Source: Ascidiella aspersa (lineage: Eukaryota). Taken from it: a stretch of 64,000 bases of DNA. The notes under the pieces are model-generated. The model did no database searches and had not been told where the DNA came from. It was given only the letters and a program-made list of their open reading frames with translations. Below, one piece after another: positions 309 to 53,920 of the stretch; within the stretch, counting starts at the first letter, position 1; each line of letters begins with the position of its first letter. The position numbers were made by a program, and so were the translations under genes. The DNA is taken from the NCBI GenBank assembly GCA_963924565.1, contig OZ004613.1, positions 4,278,001-4,342,000 on the forward strand, written 5' to 3'.

Positions 309-3300
309 TTAGGAAGTGGCCACCGCGGCAATTTCAATTTCGTTGGAAGGTTTGGCCGAGTTGGCGGCAACGCGGTTCTTGCATCTGGCGCACAATTTGT
401 CAAAAACACTTGAGTAAAGCAAAGGGTTCATGGCGCTGTTAATGGGAAGCAAAATGCCGGCACTGACAATGTAAACGTCGTTTGAAAGTTTCACCCCGCC
501 CACGGCCAAGAAGCCGCAAATACACAAGGGAATCCAGCATAGAAAGTCGGTGATGAGCAAGCGAGAAATTCGCCTTTGTAAGTCGGTGTTGATCTGATGC
601 CATCTGCGTTTCGTCATTTTTTTGCTTTCGGAATAAATGACGACGTAAGAAGCGAGCATGAAAACGAACAGTACAAAGTTTACGGTTACGAGAAAAATCG
701 AGTATTCCCAAGACGAGTCGGTTACAGACGCGAAAAGTCTAGGCATGCAAACGCTGGTCTCGCCGTAATAACCGAACGTGCCGGAAATTGGCAGAGCGGG
801 AAAGGCGCTGTGTATGAGTTGCGTCACTTCGTGCCAAGTGGGCTTCGTCAGGTTTCTTTGAATCCTGCGAGCCAACTGGAACATTTGGCCGGTGGAAACT
901 TTGTCGGAACGAAAAAAACGCGACGAAAACCAAACGTGCGAAACAAAGTAACCCGAACGAAAATAAAACGTGGGAATGGCGGCCAGCAGAAAACTTAAAA
1001 CCCAGATAGCGATGCAAATCGAATAAACCTCTTTCAATTTAAGGGATCTGGCGTCGACCGGGTTTCGCAACGATTTGAGCCGAAACGCGGTCATTGCAGT
1101 CATTGTGAAGGCGCTGATTTGGGAGGCCGCCACCAGTATCACCCCCAGCCCGGAGCAAGTCGAACTGGTTCGCCAAGCAGCGTCAACACTGCAATAATCA
1201 CCCGAAAGCTGGAGGCCTTTGACGGCGATGCCGAGCAAGTAGCAGCCCATCATGAAATCTGCCGCCGAAAGGCTCATGATGAAGACGTTTGTGTTTTGCT
1301 TGAGCGCGGTTATATTGCGCTGCGAGGCGAGCATTTCTCGTAGAGTGGTCGCAAAGACCAAGAGGTTAAACACGCACGCTACCACTCCCATTACCCAAAA
1401 GCAAGCCCGAAAAAATACGTTTGCAATCATTTCCTTTTGGCTCGAGAATATCGAGCTGCGCTTGCTGACGTCCGGGCATTCGTCGCTCCCGTCCGAGCAC
1501 TGCTTGAAGCCGTCTTCTACAAACTTACTGGCGACCGAGATGGGCTTTTTGCTGCGACAGTAAAACCGCCCAGAGCAGCGAAGTTGGTCTTCGTCGGATG
1601 CGTCTTGGCAGTCGATTATTCCGTCACAAAGCTGAGTGACGTCGATGCTTGTGAGGTCGCCCTGTGAGCACGTGTAGCGTTTCGGGCAGAGCGCTGTCTC
1701 ATTTATGCCGCATACAAACGGTCCCGGTAGTTCAGGAGCTCCGAGACAAACCGGCCCATATCGAGATTTGACGAGCACACAGGTGTCAGTGCAGAATGCT
1801 GGGGGATTTTTGCAACCCGAACACTCGTCAGATAAATCCCAGCATTCAGGTCTTTCGTCGCATTTAGTTGCCGTCACCAACCGGCGGGTGTCGTTAAACG
1901 CCGAGTTGTAGCAAGTCATTGTTTCCCTATGTTCAGTTACAGTTACCAAATCACTGCAATATTTAACGTTGTTGTTGACTTGGCACGTACTACTCGTGTT
2001 GCACAACACTTTCTCGATGTCCAAGCAGTCAGTTTTATCGTGGCAATGCATTCGACCCGGGGGGCAATTGTGTCTAGCTTCGCCCAAGATGGCCTCGCAC
2101 ACAGTTTGGTCTCCGCACAAGCATTCGTCGGAAAGGTCGTAGCAGTCAGCCACGCCGTCGCAGACTTGCCCTTGCGAAATCACCAGTCGTTTGTCCAGGC
2201 ACAAAAAGCATTTCAACTCTCCCCCGACGAAGCAAAGGTCCGACTTGTCGGCGCACTGCGCAAAGTCATCGTAGAGATTGATCTGCGGCAAAACGCACAA
2301 ACCCGTGCTGCTCAATCCGGAGCACTTGAAGCCGAACTCGCTTTTCGAATCGCTGCATTCCGATGTGTAGCGATCGTTGCAGAACTGCCACAAGGGCTGA
2401 ACGGTCTCGGCGTTGCAGAAGTAGTGAGATTGGCAGGTGCCGCTTAGGACGCACAACCACTCGTCATCGCCCAAAACCAGGTGTTTCTGATCCGCCCAAT
2501 GGTCGATCATTTTACAGCAGTTGTAGTGCTGGAAAGATAGCAGCGTGTTCTTACTGCTGTCATCCGAGCAGCGAAATATGCCCGGACCGTTTCGCACGCA
2601 CGCCTCGTCTTGCCCGCCCAGGCAGTCCTTATTTCCGTCGCCTAGCTGGTTATCCTTTATGCATTGTTCTTGATCCGCGCTGCCACTGAAAGTCGGGCAC
2701 TCGAGCTCGGCGTATTTGCAAGTCGTGCAGTTGGACTCGTCGCTGCGGTCGCTGCAGTGCTTGTGCCCGTCGCAAACCCACGCCCGTGAAATGCACTTGC
2801 TCCCGTCCTTGCACAGCCACTGGTCTTTGCGGCACGAAGACACGCAGTTCCACTCGTCGCTGTTATCAACGCAAGAAGCTCGCCCGTCGCAGAGCGAAGT
2901 TGTGTTGAGGCATTTACTGCCGTCCTTGCACCGCCATTCGCTTTCAAGGCACGATCCGACGCAGTCCAGCTCGTCGCTTCTATCGTCGCAGTTCGCCGCG
3001 CCGTTACACACAAGCGTCTGCAGTATGCACCGGCTTCCGTCGCCGCACAGCCACGAGTTGTTTTTGCAACTTGTGCAGTTCAACTCGTCGCTGTAGTCGA
3101 CGCAGTAAGCGCGTCCGTCGCACAACCAGTTCGTTCCGATGCAAGTGTCGCCAGTCGCGCACTTCCAACGCCGATCGTCGCACTTTGCCGAACAGTTCGC
3201 CTCGTCGCTTTTATCGTCGCAGTCTTCCCTTCCGTTACAGTGCAGATTGAGGTCGATGCATTCGCTCCTGTCCTTGCAAAGCCACTGGTCTGCGCCGCAA

Positions 3301-3836
3301 GTGGTCACGCAGTTCAGCTCGTCGCTGGCGTCGTCGCAGTCGCTCGCATTGTCGCAAACGGAGCCCTTCGTGATGCACCGGCCGCCATCGTTACAGAGCC
3401 ACTGCCCGTCCGGACATGACGTTTTGCAGTAGCTCTCGTCACTTCCGTCGTTGCAGTCGTTTCGTCCGGCGCAAACCCAGCTCTTCGGGATGCACTTTGC
3501 TCCGTCCTTGCACAGCCACTCGTCGTCCCGACACGATTTGACGCAGTCCAGCTCGTCGCTGTTGTCCTGGCAGTCCTTGCGCCCGTCGCAGAGCCATTGA
3601 CGCGGGATGCAGCGGCTTCGATCCCCGCACATCCACGCTCCGGCTCTACACTGGTGGCAGTTAGTCTCGTCCTCCCCGTCGGCGCAGTCCCAGCTTCCGT
3701 CGCAGACGTGCCCCTCCGGCAGGCAGCCCTCGCGCCGATTCCACATGCCGTTGCTGCACTCTAGCGGACACTGTGACGTCACCTCTGGGCAGCAGCGCAG
3801 CGCCGCGAGAAGAACAAGCAGCGACGCGATTTTCAT
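309..3836 (-). CDS. Intronless LDL-receptor class A (LDLa) repeat-containing rhodopsin-family GPCR (GRL101/LGR-RXFP-like 7TM, no leucine-rich repeats), 1175 aa
   Basis: Signal peptide MKIASLLVLLAAL. About 10 tandem LDLa modules (CDGxxDCxDxSDExxC) plus ~5 divergent ones in a Cys-rich stalk. Seven hydrophobic segments carry LGR-type motifs: SLSAADFMMGCYL (TM2), WRTSSTC (ECL1), SVCMP (ECL2), TDFLCWIP (TM6), LPINSAMNPLLY (TM7). Single uninterrupted ORF; candidate ATTAAA on the minus strand at 228-233. Confidence 0.93.
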   Translation of the reverse strand: MKIASLLVLLAALRCCPEVTSQCPLECSNGMWNRREGCLPEGHVCDGSWDCADGEDETNCHQCRAGAWMCGDRSRCIPRQWLCDGRKDCQDNSDELDCVKSCRDDEWLCKDGAKCIPKSWVCAGRNDCNDGSDESYCKTSCPDGQWLCNDGGRCITKGSVCDNASDCDDASDELNCVTTCGADQWLCKDRSECIDLNLHCNGREDCDDKSDEANCSAKCDDRRWKCATGDTCIGTNWLCDGRAYCVDYSDELNCTSCKNNSWLCGDGSRCILQTLVCNGAANCDDRSDELDCVGSCLESEWRCKDGSKCLNTTSLCDGRASCVDNSDEWNCVSSCRKDQWLCKDGSKCISRAWVCDGHKHCSDRSDESNCTTCKYAELECPTFSGSADQEQCIKDNQLGDGNKDCLGGQDEACVRNGPGIFRCSDDSSKNTLLSFQHYNCCKMIDHWADQKHLVLGDDEWLCVLSGTCQSHYFCNAETVQPLWQFCNDRYTSECSDSKSEFGFKCSGLSSTGLCVLPQINLYDDFAQCADKSDLCFVGGELKCFLCLDKRLVISQGQVCDGVADCYDLSDECLCGDQTVCEAILGEARHNCPPGRMHCHDKTDCLDIEKVLCNTSSTCQVNNNVKYCSDLVTVTEHRETMTCYNSAFNDTRRLVTATKCDERPECWDLSDECSGCKNPPAFCTDTCVLVKSRYGPVCLGAPELPGPFVCGINETALCPKRYTCSQGDLTSIDVTQLCDGIIDCQDASDEDQLRCSGRFYCRSKKPISVASKFVEDGFKQCSDGSDECPDVSKRSSIFSSQKEMIANVFFRACFWVMGVVACVFNLLVFATTLREMLASQRNITALKQNTNVFIMSLSAADFMMGCYLLGIAVKGLQLSGDYCSVDAAWRTSSTCSGLGVILVAASQISAFTMTAMTAFRLKSLRNPVDARSLKLKEVYSICIAIWVLSFLLAAIPTFYFRSGYFVSHVWFSSRFFRSDKVSTGQMFQLARRIQRNLTKPTWHEVTQLIHSAFPALPISGTFGYYGETSVCMPRLFASVTDSSWEYSIFLVTVNFVLFVFMLASYVVIYSESKKMTKRRWHQINTDLQRRISRLLITDFLCWIPLCICGFLAVGGVKLSNDVYIVSAGILLPINSAMNPLLYSSVFDKLCARCKNRVAANSAKPSNEIEIAAVATS

Positions 3837-4294
3837 GCTTGTATTACTCTATACCTATTTAATTACTATGTGGGGGAATATTTACGAATATTACAAAAAG
3901 ACAATTTATCTACATGAGTGTTTAACTTTTCAGAAAATACACAATCGTAGTTGTTCAGAAAAACAATAATGTACAAAAGATTAATTTGATGCACAATGAA
4001 TGTAAAAGCCTATATACGAAAGTTTTAAGGTGGCATTTATAAACGTTGAGAATGAATTTGGAATTGATGACTGTAGGTTATAGTTAAACGTAAATTGAAT
4101 TTTAAAGCCAATAGAGAAGTGAGTCGCATTTTGTGATCGTTTTAAATTGACGTGTTTTATCAATTGCTATCCATTGATACATGGGCTTTGATATTCATTC
4201 GACGTCCAACTATAACGTCCAGCCATTGCCTATGTAAAAGCACCTAAAAATAAAATGTACTCCACTACAACATACCAATAGACAGAAATCGTTC

Positions 4295-11009: not shown

Positions 11010-11940
11010 TAAATCTGTACAGCAAAGTAGGTAATCGACTTGAAAAATATTGTCTTTAGTTTAAAGTAAAATTCTAAAATCAACCCTATAATAAAGTTAA
11101 GTATTGCTAAATGTAAAACAGAATTAGTGCTTTTTATCGCTCAAAAAAGGTTGATCCAACCAACTTTAAAGTAATCACCAAGCAAAATGCTTTTCTGGAC
11201 AACATTTTATGAAAGACATGACAACTCATTATCACCCAAAGCAACAAGGGTTCTGAGTGTAATAATAATTAGATTAATTATTTAAAGACATCTCAAATTA
11301 TATTTGTTGGGGCGCATTCGCTAAATTAAAATGCAGAGAGAATCGCTCAAATTGTCTTGTCAGCTTGCAATTTAATAAAATCAGCTGCGTAGTAAAAGTG
11401 GCTAAACATCTCAATATATACCGGTAGTTAAAGTAAGTTATGTGAAATATTCAATGCATTTTTTACACCAATTTTTAACCCTTTCTACACCAACATATTT
11501 TTTTAAATACATTAAAAGATATAGCGGGATTTTGTGACTGCCTATGACTTAACACTTTAAAATATATAAAAATAAATACCTCACGCACACCTTTTTTAAT
11601 ATGTACTGTACAGCAACGTAAGTAATCGACTTGCAAAAGTTGTCTTTTAAAAGCTTAAAATAAAATAAGGTCATGCTATGTTTATGACAACTCTTCATCA
11701 CCCAACACAGGAAGGGTTCTCGATGTGTGATAATAATTATCAATTAATTATTTAAAGACATCTCAAATTATATTTGTTTTGGCGTATTTGCTAAATTAAA
11801 ATGCGGAGATATTTGCTTAAATTGTCTTGTCAGCTTGCATTTTAATAAAATCAGCTGAAAAGTGGCTAAAAATCTCAATAAATAGTTAAAGTTAAGTTAT
11901 GGGAAACATTTATTGCATTTTTGGCACCAATTTGCAACCC
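11010..11940. repeat. Imperfect direct tandem duplication (~11010-11480 and ~11600-11940)
   Basis: Shared collinear blocks, e.g. attaattatttaaagacatctcaaattatatttgtt and aaattgtcttgtcagcttgca...tttaataaaatcagctg. The second copy lacks ~130 bp. Confidence 0.9.
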
Positions 11941-13372
11941 CCATTCGTCAACCAATCAGATACGACTATTTTTGCCAGATATAGCTATGAAAACCTATTT
12001 TCCATAACAGTATATTGCTTAACCTTTTTAGTGTTATTACGCCATTTTACACATTCATGTTATCACTCAAAAAAATTCTTTTAAAGCAATTATGGCCTGC
12101 AATCAATTAATCAATGAACACTAAAATGGCCCCATAATTTGCCAAATAAAAAATTAAATATTAAAAACAAGTTGAAAGCTAAATACGTTCTTAAAGCTAA
12201 GATAGCATCTCGTCACATCAATTATAATTGAACTTAAATAAATCCGAAATGGTTTATCATAGTTTTATAATACAAATGTGTATATTATTTTCAAGTTATA
12301 AATAACTATACGCATAAATAAATAATTTTCTACAAATCTACCTTCGCAATTCACTCATCTACATATTATATACCTACATCATAAATAACTGTAGCGTCTA
12401 CTTCCGCACCCATATTACATATACATTTTACAACAGCGAACAACGCCGAACACGTACAAATCTCACCGAAGCGTTACGAAGTGACACTGTAATTAGAACA
12501 GTATATCCAGGCTAGTGATTGTTGGCACAATGAAAACAATCGCCGTAACAATGAACAACAATTACGACTGTTAAGATTACTATTACTAAGTAAGTTTTAC
12601 CAATGATAAACACCTGTCTTTCTGGAATGACGAAAAGCACTGAGACTTTTGCCATTCATTCGTGGGCTTATTGCATTACACTGCACTTTGATGACGTGTG
12701 TTATCCGATTTTGAATTTCACAGCATAATGTTGTTTGAGCTAAACGCTGATAAAACATCACGCGTCAATCGTTCTATATGCGCTTTAATTGCAATTTAAA
12801 AGTTTTTGCAATTACAATATTTTGGAAAATAACTTCTAGGAAAATTCAAAGTTGTAACGGTCGTAATTCAAACTTTCCTGAATGCGCTGTAATTTCCGTT
12901 TCTGTAGTATCTTATTACGCCTTTTGCTAAACAATCATTGTGTTCACAGTTACCAAACTGTTTCAAATTCTCGTATTGGCTTTGATTTAAACAAAAAAAA
13001 AAAAAAAACTGATTTTGCTGCGAATGACAAAGCATGTTCCCTGTAATAGCGGAGCTCGTTATTTAAATATTACCGAGAACAGTGGCTTGTCGTGACGGTA
13101 TCCCAGTCCCGGATATTTATAGCCACGCACTCTTTTGACAATGGATCGTTGGAAATATGGCGCAATTCCTGTTGTATGTATATAAACGATGTACACGTTA
13201 CAACAGCGAAACATGATGCACGTTAAAAGACAATGAAGGCATGCCATTACAAGAGTTAACCCTAAACTCACTTCCACCGGTAACCTTTTGAATTAATTAT
13301 TTTGTAGGGGCTAAAACAGGGGTTAGCCTTATAGGTACAAACTCGTGACCCCGGAGTACAATTAAACATTAG

Positions 13373-27589: not shown

Positions 27590-30500
27590 ATGGACCATTG
27601 TGGCGGTGCAGAATCGTCTATGACGTCACAGAACCTTGTCGGACCCGCGCGGCCCGACGTGCCCGGGGTCCCGGCCAACTTGAAGCTCCCTGGCGCCGAT
27701 GCCACCACGACGAACAGCAGTGTTTCAAGTCCACCAGAAGACAACAAAAACAGCATCAAAAGTCTTGCTTTGAAGCTGGAGCAAGATCAACCCACAACTA
27801 ACAACACTGCTGGTAAGCCGCTATATTGTTTGCAATCGTTGCTATAATTTGATAATCTCTTCTTTCGTTAATAAATTGTAAGGATGGGCGCACTATGCAC
27901 GGATCTTTAATGTAGCTTGAATTTCAAAGTCAAAAAGGTCGAGTAAATCGACATTATCTTGATTAAGACGTTTCGATACGAACTTGGATTATCTTTAGCT
28001 AAGTATCGAAACGTCTTAATCAAGATAATGTCGATTTACTCGACGTTTTTGGGATTAAAAAAAAAAAAAAAGAGATTTAAAAAAAACATTTATATTATCC
28101 TCAATGTCAAAATAATCTGCGTATGAAAGGCGAATTTATTTTTCCACACGCCTTTATTCGGTGTGGTAGAGCGATGTTAGTCTAATTAAATCGCTTAGGT
28201 TCCCGCTAATACGTTAGAACAAAAATGGGCTGGTGTGTATTTTTAAAGTGTGAACCATTTAAACAACTTTTTCTTGAATTTGCTGAAACAAAGACTTGTT
28301 AAAAAAAATTGATGCATTAGATATTTGGGCTGATGTGGCTTTTAATTGGGAGCGTACGATGACCTACCGAAGGGGTTTAAAGGATTTTCTTATAAAGTAT
28401 TTACTTTCGCAGAATTAGTGACGTAGATCATGTTGTTTAGAGAACTGTTATAAACAGGAACTATAACCTTTGCTGCTGCTCAATATATAAAGAAGAAGTT
28501 TAGACAATTTGTATCTGCTTGGGATCTACAAAGTCCACCAACAAATACAGCATCCCTAGACTTATATAGGTCTGGAAAATAATTAGGAAATCACCTAAAC
28601 ATAGATTAATAGATCACACATAAACAAAACATATCTTTACTGTTTTAATGTCTTGAACAGAATACGGAGCTGACATGGCACACCGAGAGGGGATTCCCTC
28701 TTACCTGGGATCCGTCGGAAAGGGCCTGGCGCCCTTTGGCCAGCTGCCACCCCCTTTGTTCCGCGATATGCTCAGCAGCTATTTCGAGAAGATGTACGGA
28801 AGTTACAAGCGACCTGCAACCGTTGACGACCAGAACTCGCAGTCTGCGCAAAACCTGGCAGCAGCTATCACACAGCAAGAAGTAAAGCTACACCAAGGAC
28901 ACACTGAAGCTAATTATGAAACTCAAAGCGCCGCAAAATCGCTCCCAAAAGAGTTCGGGCAAAACTACAGCCTCACTGACCCAAGAAATGCCTTTGGAAA
29001 GGTTGGTAGCCAAGCTAACTTAAAGCAAGAAGTTACAGCATTGGAACAAGACGACCCTTCGCCTGCAAGCGCCGACTTTGAGAAAGCTGAAATGAGAAAA
29101 AACTCCGAAGACGGATCCGAATCCGAAGCTAGACGCCACTTTCACAAGCAGTTTATGGCGAAAGAAGAGGCCACGATCCCGAGGTCGCGGGTTCGAGTCC
29201 CGGATGAGGTGTCGCCATTCACTTTGGCAGCTTCAAGCGGTCTTAAGGCGAACGAAGAGAACTTTTTCCTCCCGTACGGATTCCAAGCCCCTCCGGTGAA
29301 AAGCGAAGAAGTTGAAGCGAGCAAGTTGTCGCCAATTGCGCAACCTTTTAAGACTAACAACCAGCAGATGCAAGAAAAGCAGGCTCCGGCTTCGCGGAAG
29401 CGCTCTAGATCTCCCTGTAGCCAACAGGACGCGTCTATAAGTTGGCAAAAGGCAAGACTTGAGTCGGAGTTCAACCACAACCACCAGCAACATCAGGATA
29501 TGGTTTCTCCGCCTGACATTCCAAGCGCTCTCAACCCAGGATTGCTTCTTGCAGTGATGCAACAAAACGAGGCTCTAATGACTGCGCAAGGATTGGATCC
29601 GAGCGCATTGGCAGCTGTAAGGCAGATCTACGCAGCTACTCTGGAGAACAGCACCTCCGCAAACTCCCAGCTCACCAAGTGGATGTTCCCGCCAGCCATG
29701 ATGATGCTGCATCAGCGCACGGAGGCAGAGCGCCCAATCACTCCCAAAGAAAAGTACCTGGATGACAATGAGAGCGCTGGAAGCAGCATCGAAGACCGTG
29801 ATCTCTCCATTGAGGGGGATTCCGGGGACGAAGAACCACCGAGGATGCTGCCGCGTCCCGATGAAGACCGGATGGTTAGATACGGCGAGAGCAGCACTAA
29901 AGTGCTCCAGATGTATAAGTTCCTCCACGATCAGAAGCAGCGAGCATCTACAAAAGAAGACGAAGAGATAGCGGGTTGCGTTTTCCCGAATCCACGACTT
30001 CTTCCCTTTCATAGAAATCAAGCGTGTCACGCCCAGGAGATGAAGAGCGCCTCTTCCTCTGTAGAGAAGGAGCTGCGAATCCTCCTGGAGAGCAGAAAGC
30101 AGCAGAACGCGGAGAGGATCCACCAGATACAGGAGATGAGCTATCAGCAAAATGAAGGACACGGTAAGAGACACAAGTCATTCATGCTCACTTCGATTAT
30201 AGAACTTGAATTTCACATGATTGGCATTTACTGTTTGACTAAGTTGCAAGATGTATGAGCAAAATGTCAACAGGAATACGATGAAATGAAGTCAACTAAC
30301 AAACAGTTCTCATTTATCGGTCGGTTAATATCATATTGTGAAAATTACAAGCATATTAATCCATTAAATATCTAGGCTTTTCTTGGCTTTAACAGGTTTT
30401 TGTATAACGTAATACTTTCTCAGATCAGTGACACATCTCATGCAGTTATTTCGGTCGTGTATACATTTCAGTACGCATTGGAACGTTAACATATATTGCC

Positions 30501-33500
30501 AAACAAAATGGTTGGAATAATTTAATAGCTGTGGCCTAATATTACGAACGTCGAGCAAGGAACGTTGGTTTTCGGCAAATTAAAAAAAAAAAAAAAACTT
30601 CGTCCCATACTTAATTAACCGAACCAGACAATCCAGAAATATAAGAATTCTGTAGTTGACAGGGCATCAGGTTGATGGTATCGATTGGTCAGGAGTCAAT
30701 ACACATTACACATGCTCATCTAAACGTTTATTTTTGTTCTAGGTTCAAACTTGTATCCCGAGGAACTCAAGCCTTACGCAAATGACGGCCATGATATGGC
30801 TTATCGATCTTTTCAAGGTATTGTAAAACAATAGTGTCAGAGCTTTTTATAACTATATTCACTCAAGAATTGCAAAGAATCGAGAGCGCATGGCATCCTT
30901 TAACGTTAAAGTTTAGGTATTGTTTTATTACTCTATCTTTTGAGCGGTTTAATTGGGTTTAATGTTATTCGGCTGATCTCTGGAACTTAAACAAACTCTA
31001 AAAGCACAAATTCACCTAATGAGAGTGTCTTGGTACGCAAGATTAAGCTCCCTGGTCGAAATTGTGAAAACGTAAAGTGACAAGTAAAATTGGGCGACAG
31101 AAGCATATGGTGTAAATAGTGAAAAACTTGGATAATTTTGCAAAACCAACAGTTTTAATTACACGCCAGAAGTAAAAATCAGCAGTTTACCTACCGGGTA
31201 CCACTTATATTTTAAAGTGGGTCGCACTTTCTGTCACTCTTTCAAAACTAAAAAGGGCGCCATTTTTTGTCCAGCAGCTGAAAAATCGCCCACCCTGTCG
31301 GATGAGGGCAAGAAGAAGCTACGAAGGAACCGGACTACGTTCACGACTTTCCAGCTCCACGAACTGGAGCGCGCCTTCGAGAGATCTCACTACCCTGACG
31401 TTTACAGCAGGGAGGAACTGGCTGGCAAGATCAGTCTCCCGGAAGTGCGTGTGCAGGTGAGAAGTTCTTACGTTCATGCTGTATTTCACTCTTTTGATGT
31501 GCTTAATTGATTCATACCTAACGGAACCAATAGAATAAGTTTGGGTACATGTGGGCCATATTCTTTTCGTTGGAGCTTCTTTTTTGCCTAACGAAAACTG
31601 AACAAGCTGATTAAAAGGCCCTCCTGAAACAAAATACGTCGAGACATTTGGTGAAGAAAAGCTTCACTAAGTGATGTTACGACAAATTGTAGGTTCCATG
31701 AAGATGGCGTTTTTACGATTGTTTAACCTAATTACTTATTTATCGCCGTTTTGCTGCGAAACAGGGTAACTTTACAACTTCTGTAGTATGACTGCAATCC
31801 CTGCAATATTCTGCTAATTGTGTTCTGGCATTTAATATGCAGACTGGCATAGTGTCTGTCGATTTTGTTAAGCTAAAAGAATATTGTCTATATGTCGCGG
31901 ACTTTTAAACAAATAAAACACAAAATTTCGTAAGTTTTAAAACTCTGAAAACCATCATTTACGAAAGCAGTGATTAAGATAAAAATTGATTAAAAACTAT
32001 ATTGACGTTTGGTAATTAAATGCTCTACAGACCATGTAATTAACCCCCGATTAGTGGAAAGTCAAGTGGTCGCGCGGCATATTTTCATCAGAATTATGCA
32101 CCAAAGACGTACGTAAACATTCCTTAGTCCTTGGAGTTAATCGGAAACTAAATGTCCTCGAAAAAAATCGCAGATTGAAAGGCTCAATCAAAAACCATGT
32201 TGTGGTGCGCATTAGAATGGGCGATTAAACTAGCAATCGCATTACTGGGTTGTCGTGACATGCAAACCGTACAAATGCACCTCAGCGACCGCGTTCCTCG
32301 CAATTGATTTGATTTAATGCACCCGATTTGGCTTGTAGTACGACTAACTTGCAACAGATGCGACGGTCGTGCAATGTGCATGTTTCGCCTTGATAACTAA
32401 TCTTTATTACTGTAACGCACGCTCTCCTTATATGAACGTGATTGTTGTAATGCTGAATGCTGGTGATCTTAATTTACTGCAAATCGATACAGCGTTTATA
32501 AGCCTGAGGTACAGCTTTTCCGTGTTTAAGGTTTACTATGGATATCTTGTAGGACCAAATAATCATTTAAAAACCCCAATTTTATCAATAAAGTCATTTG
32601 ACTCAATGATTGAAGTCAAATTATTCGTCCAAAAGACTTGATTCAAGTAAACTCACTTTTCCAAAACTAGTTAGGTCAAGTCCGGTCAGTTAAAAACAAT
32701 GCCTTAGTCATTACAACATTGTATATTGCGGCGCAGTTACTAATATTTTCGCGAAGTGGTTTACTGCAATGTGACCATCAGTGATACATAAACAAAGCTC
32801 CTTAACTATGAACAAGGTAGGAAAATATTTGTGGACTAAAAAAGAAGCTTACCTATAGAGAGAAATTGCCATTTTACAATTTGTGTACTGTGTAGCAAGA
32901 CTTAAGCCTTTTATCGAACTGTGGACGATTAACTATGAGATATTTTCTAAGGCTGTATTTTAACCCGTGGCCTAATATTTTCAAGAAGACTCGGACAACT
33001 AAATTTATTTTAGCTTTTTAAAATTAAATTAGAGTTAAATTAGAGCATTTAAGTTTTTCCAAATCAGATTAGAAATAAAATGAAGGCATTTGATTTTTCC
33101 AAATTAGATTAGAATTGCAGATTTCTTGAGAACTAAAAAACTATAGTTTATTCTTAAATTTACATTTAATTAAATTACAATCAATTTAGTTCAAGTTGCA
33201 ATTTATGCTCAGAATAAAATAGAATATTATTCTTATTCCCCGGTTTAAGCTGTTTCTAGGTTATTACATAAAAAAATTTGCTTTGTCATAAAATACCTAG
33301 ACTTTAAAGTTTGAGCTGTAAGTTTTAAAAGCAGCTCTAAATTCTTATCAGCGCGTAAATTATAAGTAATAATGGATTGACATTGTGGAGCTATTATTAG
33401 ATTTCTGCTTCCAATTTTCTAATTCTCTAAAATTTTAACAGTTAATGCCAAAGAAGGACTTGAAAACTATTTTATCTCAAAATATTCGATTCTATCTCAA

Positions 33501-36500
33501 ATAATAAAATAGCCTAGTTTAAAAAGTAAAAAAAAAGCCTAAATTATCATTTTAAATTAACAACCTTATGAAGGACATTGCGACAACAATTAATATCGGT
33601 CTAAAGACAGCGCAGAACAAAAAGTCGCCGAAAATCGTTCAAAAAATGGCCGAAAAAATTTGCGAAAACAATCAGAAGGCGATTTGGTGGCAAAGCGACA
33701 ACACACTTGCCTATCGCCAGATCAAACCCGCCGCTTCCGAAGTTTATTGGAAGCTGTCGTGAAAGAAAAGTAAGCCAAGCGGCTCATGTATACAGCAGGC
33801 GAGGCCAATGTCAAACAGGGATAGGTGATATTGTTGCAGGTCATAATTTGAAATGCATAATTAACGCGGTGGGGTGTTGAGCAAATCAGGGGGCGCCTAC
33901 CCAAGAAAAGGCAAATTTCAGTCGCTATTTCGCGGCGCTGGGGGCCACTTAACGGCGCATTGTTAATTCATAAAGGCACAAGTCGATCATAAACCGTCAC
34001 GGTGTAGGGTTTGAGGTGCACATAATTAAAGCTGCACGCGTTTATTGCTGCCTTTTTAACGCAACACAAACTCCTCAATACGGAATAGCGCGCTATGGGT
34101 TATAATTAATTTAACGCGCGGCTTTGGGCGTTTAACTGTAGCACAAGGGCGGCAATGATTTCATCAGCATCTGGGGCATTTCGCGCCGAGATTAGAGTCG
34201 CAAAATGCCAGCTGTCGTGCAAGCAGGCGCCCGGTTAAGTACTTAACAAGAAGGATTGCGCATTGCGCTTAACAGAGCGTTATGAATTAGTGATTGGCCG
34301 GCTCGTTATATCGACCAGGCGGATCTTGATTCGCCGAGAGATGCCGCCAAATTTCGCGCTGTCCAAACGTCGCAAGCGGCAATTATGTCGCCCGGGACTT
34401 TATACATTTTTCAAAGGCGAAGGGAAATGTACACACTTGCGAAAGGCGGTCGGGCTTGTCAAGATTCCCGGGCGATACCAAGCTCTAATGCTTGTGGGAA
34501 GGGAAAATTGAATTGAAAATTGCTGGAGATTGTTTATTGGATTTGGGTATGGTAGCGTCCTAGTTACCTTAAGTGCATTTTTCTGTAAAAATCATTACAA
34601 ATATATATGGGGAAAATATGAAATATCGCAACCAAAAAATTGGGAGTTGCGCAATTAGACCTCAGGAGTTTTTTTAATTTATAGGCAGAAACTCTTTATG
34701 TATCGTTAGTTTTCACCTGTACGTACACATTTATTTTCTTTTTTTTACAATTTCGAATTGCAAATATACAATAGGTTGCTCTTATAAGGAAGGGAATAAC
34801 CAATAGATCCCTTCTGAAGGTTCGTAAACATTTAAAAAGTGAATGCCAAAATTTTTTTAAACAAGCGAAAAGTATTTATTCGCTTGGTCAGTTTATTCAG
34901 GTGTAGTGTTACGTTACGAGCAACAATCTTTCAGAGAACTGCAGAAAGCGCGTCTCATATAATAGCCTTTTTGGTTTTAAACCATATTTACTGCAAATCC
35001 GTAGAAGTCTTTTTCTTCTTTATCAAGGTCTGGTGTCATTTAAGCTCCGCAAGCAATTTAAACGGAACATTATTGATGGGCGTTTTTCAATGTGTTAGGT
35101 TACGAACCACAATTTTCACAGAACCAAAGATGTCGCGTCACATAGGAACCGTTTTTTCCATACTTGATAAAGTTTTAATGCAATCTTTCTCTTCCTAATT
35201 AAGGTCTGCTTCCAGAATCGACGGGCAAAAAACGTTATTATTAGGATTTTTTTGAATTTTTTTTGTTTTGTTACAAGCAAGAACTTTCACAGTACCGAGG
35301 CTTTCCCATAGGCGCTGTTTCGTTCTTAAACCATATTCAATAAAAATTTAATGCAATCATTACCTACTTCATCAAAGTCTTGTTTAAGTCATTTAAAATT
35401 TGCAAGCAATGAAAACGGACCTGTTATTAATGGGATTATTTTCAATGTGGTAGATTACGAGCAACGAAGGCTTTTTCATGGGAGCTGTTTCTTTCTCAAT
35501 AATTACTGCTAATTTAATGCAATCTTTCTCCAATTTTTTATTAAGGTCTGGTTCCAGAATCGACGCGCAAAATGGCGTCGTCAGGAAAAAGTGGACTCCT
35601 CCAACCACGAGAAGGAATTGGTGCAGTGCAGACAGGCTATGTCACTCGGTGAGTGGTGACGTCATATACGATGACGTGACTTTGCTTAAGGCGCTTGGGT
35701 TTTTATTTTTATGCCAAACTTGTTTAAACGGAAATCAATCGCATTTTGATATTTAATGATTTGGATCAAACCAAAGAAAAAAATCTAATGTAACTAAAGG
35801 GATTCTGCAGTAATTTATAAAGCTTTTATATTACCAGGAAGCAAGCCAAAGCTGATTTTTGTGAAAAATCAACAACGTATAAAAGTCTGTAGTCAGCTTT
35901 TTCAAAGTTCAACATACTTTATACAACAAAATAGTACCAACGAGCTCTCACTGAAAACCCCAAAAGTTTTCCGAAATGTTCTACTGGTGCGAAAAAGGAG
36001 TTTCTTTTTGTCCAAAGGAATACGTTTTCCGGCGTTTTTCTCACACTTGCGCAATTCTTTTATTGAATTTATAACAAATTTATCGAATTCTCGCAGGTCC
36101 ATCAATTTCGACAAAGCTTTCTACGACAAATACAACAGGAGGGCGCCATCCGATCGAAATGCTGCCACATCTGGCATCGCCAAAAAGCGGAAACTCGCCG
36201 TCCGCGTTGTCCGCAGCTTCTCCGCAAAGCAGCACTTCAGCGCAGCATCCGTCTTTTTCCATTCCTTTCCTATCAGGAATGCTGTCAAGCGCTCAGGGCC
36301 ACAGCAGAGCTGAGCAGTTGAAGATGGCGCTTCCCGCGGGCTTAGCGACACCAGGCGGCAGTTATTTATCCAACGGATCGCCACCATACGGCGCTCGCCC
36401 CTTGGACTCGCATTTACCCTTATCGCTGCATTTGCTGGGCGCTTCGACTAGCAACGCACTATCAGCATATTTTAACAAGGACACAATTAACCCAGCTCCG

Positions 36501-36617
36501 CAAAACATGCCTGAAACTGATCAGAGAAGTTCAGTTAATCCGAAATTTGAAGAAACCGCAAAAGCATCTCTTCAATTTCCAACAACTAGCGAAAAGATTT
36601 CGCTGGTTACGCAGTGA
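27590..36617 (+). CDS. Rx: Retinal homeobox protein Rx/Rax, ~868 aa; join(27590..27812,28661..30163,30743..30817,31275..31456,35546..35648,36097..36617)
   Basis: Homeodomain [49 protein letters not shown]|[15 protein letters not shown] is a Q50 PRD-class Rx domain with the classical intron between Q46 and V47. All GT-AG junctions are phase-compatible (2607 nt). AATAAA at ~36786. A likely 5' UTR intron runs from donor 26928 to acceptor 27500. Confidence 0.93.
27931..28051. repeat. Perfect 42-bp inverted repeat (hairpin) with 23-nt loop in Rx intron 1
   Basis: 27938-27979 gtcgagtaaatcgacattatcttgattaagacgtttcgatac is the exact reverse complement of 28003-28044; extended by caaaaa/tttttg after one mismatch. 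Confidence 0.95.
34900..35575 (+). repeat. Four degenerate ~170-185 bp tandem units (A-B-A-B), each ending in a copy of the Rx exon-5 splice acceptor
   Basis: Recurring ttacga.caac-like motif (~34914, 35100, 35271, 35455) and acceptor-like aag-gtctg at 35025, 35201, 35373 (degenerate) and 35543 (the real exon). Confidence 0.85.
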
Positions 36618-37778
36618 CGTTGATTGGTCGTTTGTTATGTAACCCTAACACCATTGTGATTACTGTTTTCAATCGCACGTTTATAATTCCATATAATTTA
36701 TCTGAAATGTGGCGCGAACCTGTCAGCATGCAGTTGTTTTTTATTAGTTAGCCTGTGTCAAAAGTTTTTTTGAGTCTTTAGTTAAAATAAAAGTTTCTGC
36801 ATAAACAGACTAAACTAATTATTAAATTACTTTTTCGAATCATACAGTAGTTGTATAAAAATACCAAATCTCCCACATTAACTTATCATATAGGTTTAGG
36901 GATTTGATGCATCTTGGAATTCATTTTAAGAAGAGATTACTTGGCTTTGGATGAACTTTAAAACGTACGGAACAAACTTTAGTTACGTACTTATTTTGTA
37001 TTAAAGATAAAAGCGGACTTTGTAGGCTTCATGAAAACAAGTTTTGAAATATTGATGAATCTATTTGAAACTTTAACTTAAATCAAGAAGTGAATTAGAA
37101 GCCATTTTTTGTACCCAGCAGAGTAAAAAATTCATTCAAACACCACACAAACGCAAAATTTAAGTAGAAAGTTAATAGTAACTATTACTAGAAAGCCAAC
37201 AAAGACACTTTGTGTTGAATTATTTTTGAAAAATCAATCAATAACAGCATTATATGTAATTTTGATGTCCTTTTTGTATTAAAATGGCAACAAAAATTTT
37301 TTTTCGTAATGTGCAATATCAACGAAACATCCAAGATTTCCAAGATTTCAAAGATCATGTGTAATATAAACGACAGGCCGATATAAACCTCTGGTTTGTT
37401 CAAGGTTATCTAACAGCGGTTATTTTTTAAAAATCCAATAAATCAAGACAAATTTCGCTACTTCTCTTCACCACCATTTCTTTATATTATAGTTTGTAAG
37501 ATGGTTTACAAACCAACTATTTTAGTAAATAATTTATTTGGCTAATATATTTTCAAATTGTATAAGAAATATCTCACTTTCGAACGTATAAGTTGTATGC
37601 AGAAAGTCAAATTCCAAAAAATTGTGTTTGTTGAAAAAGTAACAAAATTGGGGAACCACCACGCTGAGATCATAGTAACGAAAAGCTTGGAAAAAAAATT
37701 AAAAAGCTTAAATTAGGTTTAGCGTTGCTAGTAAGACTTATCGTGTTTAAAACTGTTTAAAATTGGTGAAATAGAGGT

Positions 37779-38816
37779 ATGAGTGAAGATGAAACACCTA
37801 TTTTACCGCCATCACATCACATTAAGCTGGAATACTGCGAAACCCGGCCGAAATATAGAAGATGCAAAAAGAAACGTTCCGTTCGCGTTTTTACTGTCAA
37901 TTCTGAATCGAAATACCTGATTGTAACCGATGTACCGATTACGTGCTTGGAAAGTGACTTAATAAAGTTATTTGCGTCATTTGGGACCCTTAAACAAACT
38001 CGTGAGCTGCCGGATTACCCACAAGAGGAATTCATAAAGACCTTTTTAATAGAATTTCAAGATATTCAACGAGCAAAAACCGCAAAAAAGTTCACCGATG
38101 AAAAAAACTTTTACGGCGGTATGTTGCATGTTTGCTATGCCCCGGAATACGAAACTGTTAGTGACACGAGGGAAAAGATAAACCACAGACGCAGCACTGT
38201 AACAACGAGGGTTAAAATTCTGGAAAAGGAAGCAAGAATGACAAAAAGTAAACAGCCATCGGCCAATAAAAGTAATAAAAAGATTGAGGAAAAATGCAAA
38301 AGTTACAAAAAGAATGCAGAAACTTCTCATGATATGTTACAAGCTAATGAAGAAATGAACAACATTGGGCCTCAATTGCCTGGTAGTTCATCGACAATAT
38401 CAAATCAGGGCTTCCATCCCCAAATTCCATGCAACCAATTTGGGATTCCCCTGTTTTTACCCCCTCCACCACCCCCAGAATTTGTGCCATACAGAAATCG
38501 GTCTGTGAGTAAAGCAAACTCTCATAACGCTACAGAAAGCAATGTCCCTAAAAGAATTACCAACAAAAATCCACCTGGCTCAGTCAAAAAGACGCTTAAC
38601 AAGGAAAATCCAAAAATGAAAGTTCGAAGTGGTTATTTTTATCAAAGTGTTGCGCAATCAACCAAACAAACTGTTCCAAGAACTGACACAAACAATATAG
38701 CTGCAAACATAAAAAGCAATCCACTTGTTTCGTTTAAACCTCCGCCATTTATTCCGCGACATTTAAAGAAAACAGCAACAAACGAAAACACAAATTCTAA
38801 AAATCAAGTATCATGA
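37779..38816 (+). CDS. RBM48: RNA-binding motif protein 48 (minor spliceosome factor), intronless, 345 aa
   Basis: N-terminal HH..EYCETRPKYR, VRVFTVNSESKYLIV..VP, YPQEEF, FYGGMLHVCYAPEYETVSDTREK are the RBM48 RRM signature; low-complexity C-terminus; AATAAA at ~38865. Confidence 0.92.
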   Translation: MSEDETPILPPSHHIKLEYCETRPKYRRCKKKRSVRVFTVNSESKYLIVTDVPITCLESDLIKLFASFGTLKQTRELPDYPQEEFIKTFLIEFQDIQRAKTAKKFTDEKNFYGGMLHVCYAPEYETVSDTREKINHRRSTVTTRVKILEKEARMTKSKQPSANKSNKKIEEKCKSYKKNAETSHDMLQANEEMNNIGPQLPGSSSTISNQGFHPQIPCNQFGIPLFLPPPPPPEFVPYRNRSVSKANSHNATESNVPKRITNKNPPGSVKKTLNKENPKMKVRSGYFYQSVAQSTKQTVPRTDTNNIAANIKSNPLVSFKPPPFIPRHLKKTATNENTNSKNQVS

Positions 38817-52329: not shown

Positions 52330-53425
52330 CAAAAGAAATGATTTTTTTGCCTGACATAATTTAATTAGTTTGTAGGAAAGTTGGTACTAACGTTTTTTGA
52401 TTTGAGTGCTGGTTGATAAAAATATTTGCGTGGAGCACATAGCCTTGTAAGTTAGCTCGGTTGATATCTTTTTAGCTTTCGCAGCGTTACAAACAAATCA
52501 TTTTAAAGCGACTTTAGTCCTCATCAAGTCTTTGAAAAAAAACAAGTCATTAGGTAAAAAATTATCCTATTATCCGGTGAAAATAGAGATCGATCCATTT
52601 GTGGTTTCTGGACTATATGAAAGAACAAAATTGTGTCATGAATTTTGTTTTGCTGTGCAAATTTGAACAGCTTAATAATGATTGCCCTTAAAATTGTAAG
52701 CGATTCTTAGTTTGTTTCGATAGCTTGCACAGCAGATTATAATAAAGCAAGAAATGACGTTTTTGCCGAGTTTATCTTATAATGCAGTTAGTTTTCAATC
52801 TTATAGTGTAATTCGTTGCAAAAAGTTGTTGCTTTTTAACGTCTTATTTTTTACTTTTTACGAACAGTTTTGAGTGCTGGCTGATTTCGCTTAAAACGAA
52901 ATATATAACTTAAGTTTAACTCTTATTTTTTTTTAATTTTTCCGATTTAAGTCATTTGTCCCAAAGACTTAAGTCAAGTCTTTTAAAATCACTGACATAA
53001 GTGCACGAAATTTAAGACTTCGTCAGTACAACACTCTATTTTAAACTAGAAATGGAACTTTTGCCGAGTTTGTATTATAATGCAATTAGTTGCAGAAAAT
53101 AATTATTTTTTTGTGTCTTATTTTTTGATTTTTTACAAACAATTTTGGGTGTGAGTTGAATGTGCTTAAAACGAAATATATAAGCTTAAATTTAACTGAT
53201 ATGTTATTAGTTTTTCAGAGTTAAGTCATTTAAAAACAGTGACCAAGTTCACGAGAGTCAAGACATTGACCAAAGTTTTTGCAGCACTGTATTTCAGACA
53301 AAAAAATAACGCGAAGCCGAATAAGAATAACTTTACAAATAATTTTGAGTGTGGCTTGATTTTTGTTAAAACGGAATATACAACCATAAGTTAGCTCAAC
53401 AGATATTTTTTCAGTTTTCAGACTA
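52330..53425 (+). repeat. Four degenerate tandem units of ~200-450 bp
   Basis: Recurring tttgagtg(ct)gg.tgat..ttaaaacg.aatata..aag.ttaa/ag.. at ~52401, 52869, 53143, 53343, mostly preceded by agaaatg..ttttgcc. Confidence 0.8.
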
Positions 53426-53920
53426 GAAAATTACCGGCAGCCGAATGACCCTGTACAGCAGGCGGTCATCTCGTGCGAGTTGCGAGTGTATTATCGCTGC
53501 GGGCAAACAGAACGAACGGCGCTCAGCTCGGGAAACAACAGCCCATGCCAAACCGACCGTTCCCTCCATAAAATTATGACTTAAACGCGTCTGGCCTTTT
53601 GTTTGTTCTTGTCAGGCGACGCACGTTTGTTCAGCAAACTGAAGCGTCGCGAACGGAGCCTTAGAACAAGATAAGGATGTTTTGCGCGCCAGTTTTTTGT
53701 AGCAACAGGACTAATATACGTCCTTCTATTGCAGGGGGATCCTTAGTACTCTTTTGGAACTTTTTTGTAAGTTTGAAACTCCACACGACTAGGTATTTTT
53801 AATATAATAATAAACTGAACAGCAATTCTAAAAACCTGACAATTCTTTTTTGTTAGGTTTGTAAACGATTTTGACTTGAAATAACTGTGATAGATTTTGA
53901 CCTAACGTGTGAATTTTGAC

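Follow-up and report, generated by a model that had tools for sequence, protein, structure and literature searches.

The window analyzed here, 64,000 nucleotides of the Ascidiella aspersa contig OZ004613.1 (positions 4,278,001 to 4,342,000, forward strand), contains a homeobox gene on its plus strand. Its six predicted exons have GT-AG borders and join into one open frame of 868 amino acid residues. The exons are as follows.

27590..27812, plus strand: Rx coding exon 1, with a GT donor; the joined frame is open and aligns to Ciona Rx; putative start codon ATG at 27590
28661..30163, plus strand: Rx exon 2, internal, 1,503 nt, AG/GT borders, matching Clavelina and Ciona Rx proteins
30743..30817, plus strand: predicted Rx exon 3, 75 nt, AG/GT borders, frame kept, weakly conserved
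31275..31456, plus strand: Rx exon 4, encoding homeodomain residues 1–46; donor GT at 31457; Pfam Homeodomain, E 8e-14
35546..35648, plus strand: Rx exon 5, 103 nt, encoding homeodomain helix 3 (Pfam Homeodomain positions 46–57); donor gtgagt from 35649
36097..36617, plus strand: Rx exon 6, coding part to TGA; the frame runs on from exon 5; about 2 RNA reads in run X7

Among 120 proteins fetched, the best full-length match of the 868-residue protein was Ciona Prx1/Rx (E 3e-64), with 34% identity over 644 aligned positions, and the homeodomain differed from that of Ciona at one of its 60 residues. The named matches of exon 4 were mostly Rx proteins. The first 15 residues of exon 5 were identical in both aligned Ciona proteins, and the FSIPFL motif of exon 6 was common to both. 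Exon 2 alone matched three proteins among 1.84 billion representatives, one from Clavelina, one from Ciona, and one unnamed; a near-length protein search with this exon gave no match among 8,000 candidates. The protein is of the same long ascidian type as Ciona Prx1/Rx (P0003, 825 residues) and Clavelina Rx (P0121, 914 residues). The homeodomain carries R18-A19, V43, and Q50, and an intron falls between its residues 46 and 47, with exon 4 ending at Q46 and exon 5 beginning at V47. Val43, Arg18-Ala19, Q50, and an intron between homeodomain positions 46 and 47 are given as Rx features in the accessible part of PMC2938728. The homeodomain features, the intron position, and the best full-length match to a named Rx together identify the gene as an ascidian Rx gene of the PRD class.

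A pattern search at the usual places matched neither the octapeptide nor the C-terminal OAR domain, which are usual, although not universal, in Rx/Rax proteins. An OAR was likewise absent from the Pfam results for the two Ciona proteins, and the missing elements look like an ascidian trait rather than an argument against orthology. The OAR motif is otherwise C-terminal in Rx proteins and is absent from the C-terminus here; exon 1 encodes a loosely OAR-like SIKSLALK at 27749–27781, which may be a coincidence. At the exon 4 acceptor, a tandem CAGCAG (31272–31277) permits a shift of one residue.

Exon 4 ends at 31456 in phase 0 and is followed by intron 4, which is 4,089 nt (about 4.1 kb) long. 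Within this intron, a GC-richer stretch at 33600–34500 contains several TAATTA/TTAATT motifs and had few differences among those listed between samples; it is possibly an intronic enhancer. Two intronless frames were observed elsewhere in the window. One (312–3848, minus strand) has 1,179 residues; it encodes a rhodopsin-family 7TM domain preceded by 12 LDL-receptor class A repeats and resembles the GRL101/RXFP-type receptors. The other (37770–38813, plus strand; 348 codons, weak RRM match) lies about 1.2 kb downstream of Rx and is taken by us to be RBM48-like.

Tandem array at the intron 4/exon 5 boundary

Four units of about 175 nt (34868–35572) repeat the end of intron 4 and the first 27 nt of exon 5. 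Arranged head to tail, each comprises about 150 nt of intron end, an acceptor site, and about 27 nt of exon start. Only 27 of the 103 nt of exon 5 were copied, and the last copy runs directly into the remainder of the gene. The units and the features discussed below are as follows.

34868..35056, plus strand: unit 1, with acceptor 35028, a decayed copy of the exon start, and two extra AGs at −25 and −22
35057..35230, plus strand: unit 2, with a copy of the intron end, acceptor 35204, and a 27-nt exon copy
35204..35311, plus strand: hypothetical read-through frame of unit 2, 35 codons and TAG at 35309–35311
35231..35409, plus strand: unit 3, with acceptor AG changed to AA; contains AATAAA
35339..35344, plus strand: AATAAA hexamer, within the decayed branch-region copy of unit 3, at background frequency
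35410..35545, plus strand: intron part of unit 4, with the authentic acceptor and CTAAT at −34; no further AG occurs within 60 nt

The alignment of 34907–35230 with 35264–35572 gave 228 matches and 65 mismatches with a score of 219, whereas the best score among 300 shuffles was 46. This result confirmed the four-unit repeat of the intron 4 end and exon 5 start claimed in the original prediction. The units proposed there also stood, but the array begins at about 34868, some 30 nt upstream of the 34900 that had been given. Tandem Repeats Finder did not detect the array, the units of which differ pairwise at 17–33% of aligned sites. In the four-way alignment, 22 of 29 informative columns paired unit 1 with unit 3 and unit 2 with unit 4, which points to duplication of a unit followed by duplication of a dimer. 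In this history, one unit of about 175 nt would have doubled, the upstream exon copy would have decayed, and the resulting dimer of about 350 nt would then have doubled. An early impression of a mosaic unit history was dropped because these columns fit the dimer model.

Among 118 adjacent-window pairs, three scored above 100, including noncoding duplications at 11.2–12.0 kb and 52.8–53.5 kb. These two (11161–12027 and 52750–53457) have periods of about 450 nt and 275 nt, respectively, with copies about 80% identical, and the latter includes a partial third copy. Both resemble the array in size, and local tandem duplication is thus common in the window.

Since exon 4 ends in phase 0, the acceptors of units 1 and 2 are in frame with it. 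From acceptor 35028, unit 1 reads VWCHLSS and onward to a TAA ending at 35198. In the exon copy of unit 2, the W48 codon TGG is changed to TGC at 35209 and a silent change is found at 35224; 26 of the 35 codons of its frame are intron sequence of unit 3. The in-frame W48C reading with its stop at 35309–35311 was reproduced, and the coordinates predicted for the unit 1 and 2 acceptors, frames, and stops, the AATAAA, the true exon, and the donor gtgagt at 35649 were all correct. The sole AG remaining in unit 3 lies one base downstream of the lost one (35376–35377) and is out of frame.

The pyrimidine tract of unit 2 (14/16) equals that of the true acceptor (13/16), and in the first 3.4 kb of intron 4, 13 pyrimidines are reached by just two further AGs. 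In local folding, the unit 2 tract was predicted to be less accessible than that of unit 4 (0.01 vs. 0.11 unpaired), a difference too weak to count. Unit 2 has TTAAT at −26 and another AG at −33. CTAAT at −34 is present in unit 4 alone among the units, and a branch-like motif is missing within 60 nt in 3/4 of the other acceptors of the gene. It had been argued that only the last copy has a strong donor. No donor scoring at least 7/9 was found between 35028 and 35648. The argument is incomplete, as the upstream acceptors can use the donor at 35649. The candidate donors AG|GTCTGC (35204) and AAC|GTTATT (35234) matched 6/9 consensus positions vs. 7/9 for 35649; one real donor of the Rx gene also scores 6/9. 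Mutually exclusive duplicated exons were considered and ruled out by the 27 of 103 nt copied and the lack of an own donor of at least 7/9.

Variation among samples and divergence of the copies

The region 31200–36899 was compared in 4 of 11 runs. One 10,569-nt contig of run X2 covered 31200–34904 and 34906–36899 collinearly, with the four units in order, and raw DNA reads of run X6 covered 30 of 30 bins. The array is present in the genome of more than one sample. Mis-assembly, named in the original prediction as a refuting case, was excluded by the collinear contig and the raw reads; together with the 17–33% divergence of the units, they leave an assembly artefact with next to no probability. 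Run X4, which carries another organism label, was considered as a sister species and rejected: it gave short pieces of low depth, several with 0–2 differences.

Unit 1 showed a 2-nt deletion at 35091 in X2 and in four of four X6 reads, by which the frame from acceptor 35028 is shifted, and an 18-nt deletion in X2 that was found in none of five X6 reads. In the frame of unit 2, one Asn-to-Pro change and a pair of silent changes were among the differences listed for X2/X6, and none of the 12 of 47 indel rows listed placed an indel there. Position 35209, that of the W48C change, does not appear among the 40 of 358 substitution rows listed. The window differed from X2 by at least 16 substitutions in 338 nt of the units vs. 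61 in 3,705 nt upstream (Fisher p=0.0005); exon 4 and intron sequence that may be under constraint form part of the upstream stretch. Gap arithmetic gave one 1-nt insertion in X2 somewhere between 34906 and 36899. At the 5′ edge of unit 1 (34904/34906), runs X2 and X6 carried 60 extra bases absent from the window; four X6 reads contained them.

In RNA run X7, of which about 6% (7.8 million records) was used, depth was zero on exon 4, the units, and exon 5. The 149 reads placed fell nearly all on an intronic repeat. This element of intron 4 (32987–33116) is dispersed and of high copy number, contains a 40-nt tandem unit, and had DNA depth about 200 times background; it was nearly the sole site of RNA reads.

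Units 2 and 4 differed at 23 of 124 aligned sites in their intron parts. With the rate taken from these parts, and an unconstrained copy compared with a constrained exon, 3.5 differences would be expected in the 27-nt exon copy of unit 2 under neutrality; two were observed (P(≤2)=0.32), a count that fits neutral decay. Over their final 57 aligned bases, units 2 and 4 showed five differences vs. 6.6–9.8 expected (P 0.07–0.36); with one difference fewer, as in X2/X6, P was 0.03–0.22. In the corresponding block of units 1 and 3, 18 of 59 sites differed. These values give a slight hint, not significant in most calibrations, that the 3′ block of unit 2 is somewhat better preserved than expected, explicable either by constraint or by gene conversion from unit 4. 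Signs of decay were observed in the other upstream copies: unit 3 lost its AG, and unit 1 gained two upstream AGs and, in X2/X6, a frameshift. A stop-free run of 26 codons, like that in the unit 2 tail, arises from 16% of random starts in intron 4.

Choice of acceptor and fate of the upstream copies

We consider it most probable, at roughly 0.78, that the array is a real and old duplication of the intron 4/exon 5 boundary, the three upstream copies of which are probably neutral remnants and are probably removed together with intron 4 during splicing. Judged from conservation, acceptor 35546 must carry the main product, since exons 5 and 6 keep the Ciona Rx motifs in one open 868-residue frame. 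Exon definition would be expected because intron 4 is 4.1 kb long; introns longer than 200 nt, 76–82% of Ciona introns, tend toward this mode in the part of PMC2397502 consulted. It would pair acceptor 35546 with donor 35649 across the 103-nt exon. The upstream copies sharing this donor would need exons of 445 nt (unit 2) or 621 nt (unit 1), and unit 1 would be further disfavored by its two interfering AGs, CTAAT at −34 being kept by unit 4 only. The original prediction had offered, as one option, decoys that are skipped by exon definition. Presumed skipping of the copies, and a neutral duplication, named there as a refuting case, fit the data best; a function as decoys found no evidence. Against skipping stand the unit 2 tract, which equals the true one, the weakness of the branch-like motif as a discriminator, and the 1,503-nt exon 2, a long internal exon that the Rx gene tolerates. 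In globin minigenes with duplicated sites, the proximal copy was used in some of the studies mentioned in the available text of PMC1557585.

Unit 2 may instead be a working minor acceptor that uses donor 35649, so that a 445-nt exon with a premature stop would be made and its decay would lower the Rx dose, either as noise or as regulated unproductive splicing. This alternative, which we regard as unlikely, draws on the intact AG, strong tract, and TTAAT of unit 2, on the splicing of long internal exons in this gene, and on the slightly low divergence of the unit 2 3′ block. The low divergence, however, is mostly not significant and is equally explained by gene conversion, and polymorphism within the units is raised. 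A premature stop well before the last junction is a likely substrate of decay. Under the neutral reading, any leakage to 35204 would place a stop 337 nt upstream of the last junction, and the product would likely be degraded or an inert protein, W48C being one random change in a pseudo-exon fragment.

A stronger version appears improbable to us: that a young duplication provided 35204 as a second working acceptor that is regulated in photoreceptor lineages, giving a W48C product truncated in helix 3, or decay, as a newborn dosage switch. Ciona needs Rx for photoreceptors and expresses it in tailbuds and larvae, according to the portion of PMC8450388 available. If the use of unit 2 were regulated, a new isoform switch would be arising in a photoreceptor gene.

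The original prediction had emphasized an alternative terminal exon, in which unit 2 with a poly(A) site near 35360 would yield a 696-residue W48C Rx acting as a dominant negative or a dosage buffer. This we consider very improbable. The frame is open from exon 4, ends at a stop, and has AATAAA 28 nt after it, and W48 was invariant in all 37 proteins encoding VxF after the junction among the 129 fetched. The product would differ at homeodomain position 48 and, since only 27 nt of the exon were copied, would also lose homeodomain residues 56–60 and the last 198 residues. Such a truncated isoform would be expected to lose DNA binding. However, the hexamer is at chance level: six AATAAA occur in the 4,089-nt intron, the window background is 1.5 per kb, and one would occur by chance within the 234 nt that follow the unit 2 stop in about 30% of cases. 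The 26-codon tail is unit 3 intron sequence with no Pfam match above the cut-off, and it carries the Asn-to-Pro change in X2/X6. We take W261 of Pou1f1 to be homeodomain position 48. Loss of function is the effect described for the mouse Pou1f1 W261C allele in the accessible text of PMC9795478, and a W48C Rx protein would thus be more likely inert than dominant. W48 is not mentioned in the part of PMC11006913 available, and neither a truncated ascidian Rx isoform nor a boundary array was reported in the literature searched, outside of which most subscription journals lie. The dominant-negative or dosage-buffering proposal found no positive support, given a chance-level hexamer, a neutral-like copy, and a unit 1 frame that is lost elsewhere.

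Least probable among the splicing alternatives is a nascent intron gain or recursive splicing, in which the unit 2 acceptor would be used and a new donor (35204 or 35234) would then excise the remaining sequence before 35546. AG|GT is found in every intact copy, and introns were gained from like architecture in potato RdRp (PMC4974935) and in an ATP2A2 minigene (PMC3265369), as far as the available parts of these reports go. The candidate donors nevertheless score below that at 35649, AG|GT is merely the Gln-Val junction of the homeobox, and a 30-nt micro-exon would insert 10 residues into helix 3.

As a neutral duplication, the array is most likely one more boundary duplication of little consequence. 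It is also a trap for gene prediction and for short-read mapping, because reads extending less than 6 nt past the junction cannot separate 35204 from 35546. At the same time, it is a natural substrate for the choice of a chordate spliceosome among similar acceptors of graded age.

Comparison with known boundary duplications

Three known systems resemble the Rx array, each described here from the portions of the cited reports available. In the ATP2A1/ATP2A2 model of intron birth, as in Rx, tandem copies each carry AG|GT (PMC3265369). There, exonic sequence was duplicated and an intron was created, whereas in Rx the copy is mostly intronic and the intron only grew.

The duplicated unit in potato RdRp consists, as in Rx, of the 3′ end of an intron and the start of the next exon (PMC4974935). 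There, the copied exon contained a cryptic GTAAG donor from which a new intron arose, supported by 106 junction reads (PMC4974935); the 27-nt copy of Rx is without a strong donor.

In the minisatellite of human F7 intron 7, a tandem repeat over an exon-intron boundary likewise multiplies a splice site; use is confined to the copy next to the complete exon, the duplicated donors having been shown experimentally to be silent (PMC1557585). The F7 repeat multiplies a donor in near-identical 37-bp units, whereas the Rx array multiplies acceptors in diverged units of about 175 nt, which are presumed silent. The Rx array is likely a neutral boundary duplication, with human F7 and potato RdRp as its precedents.
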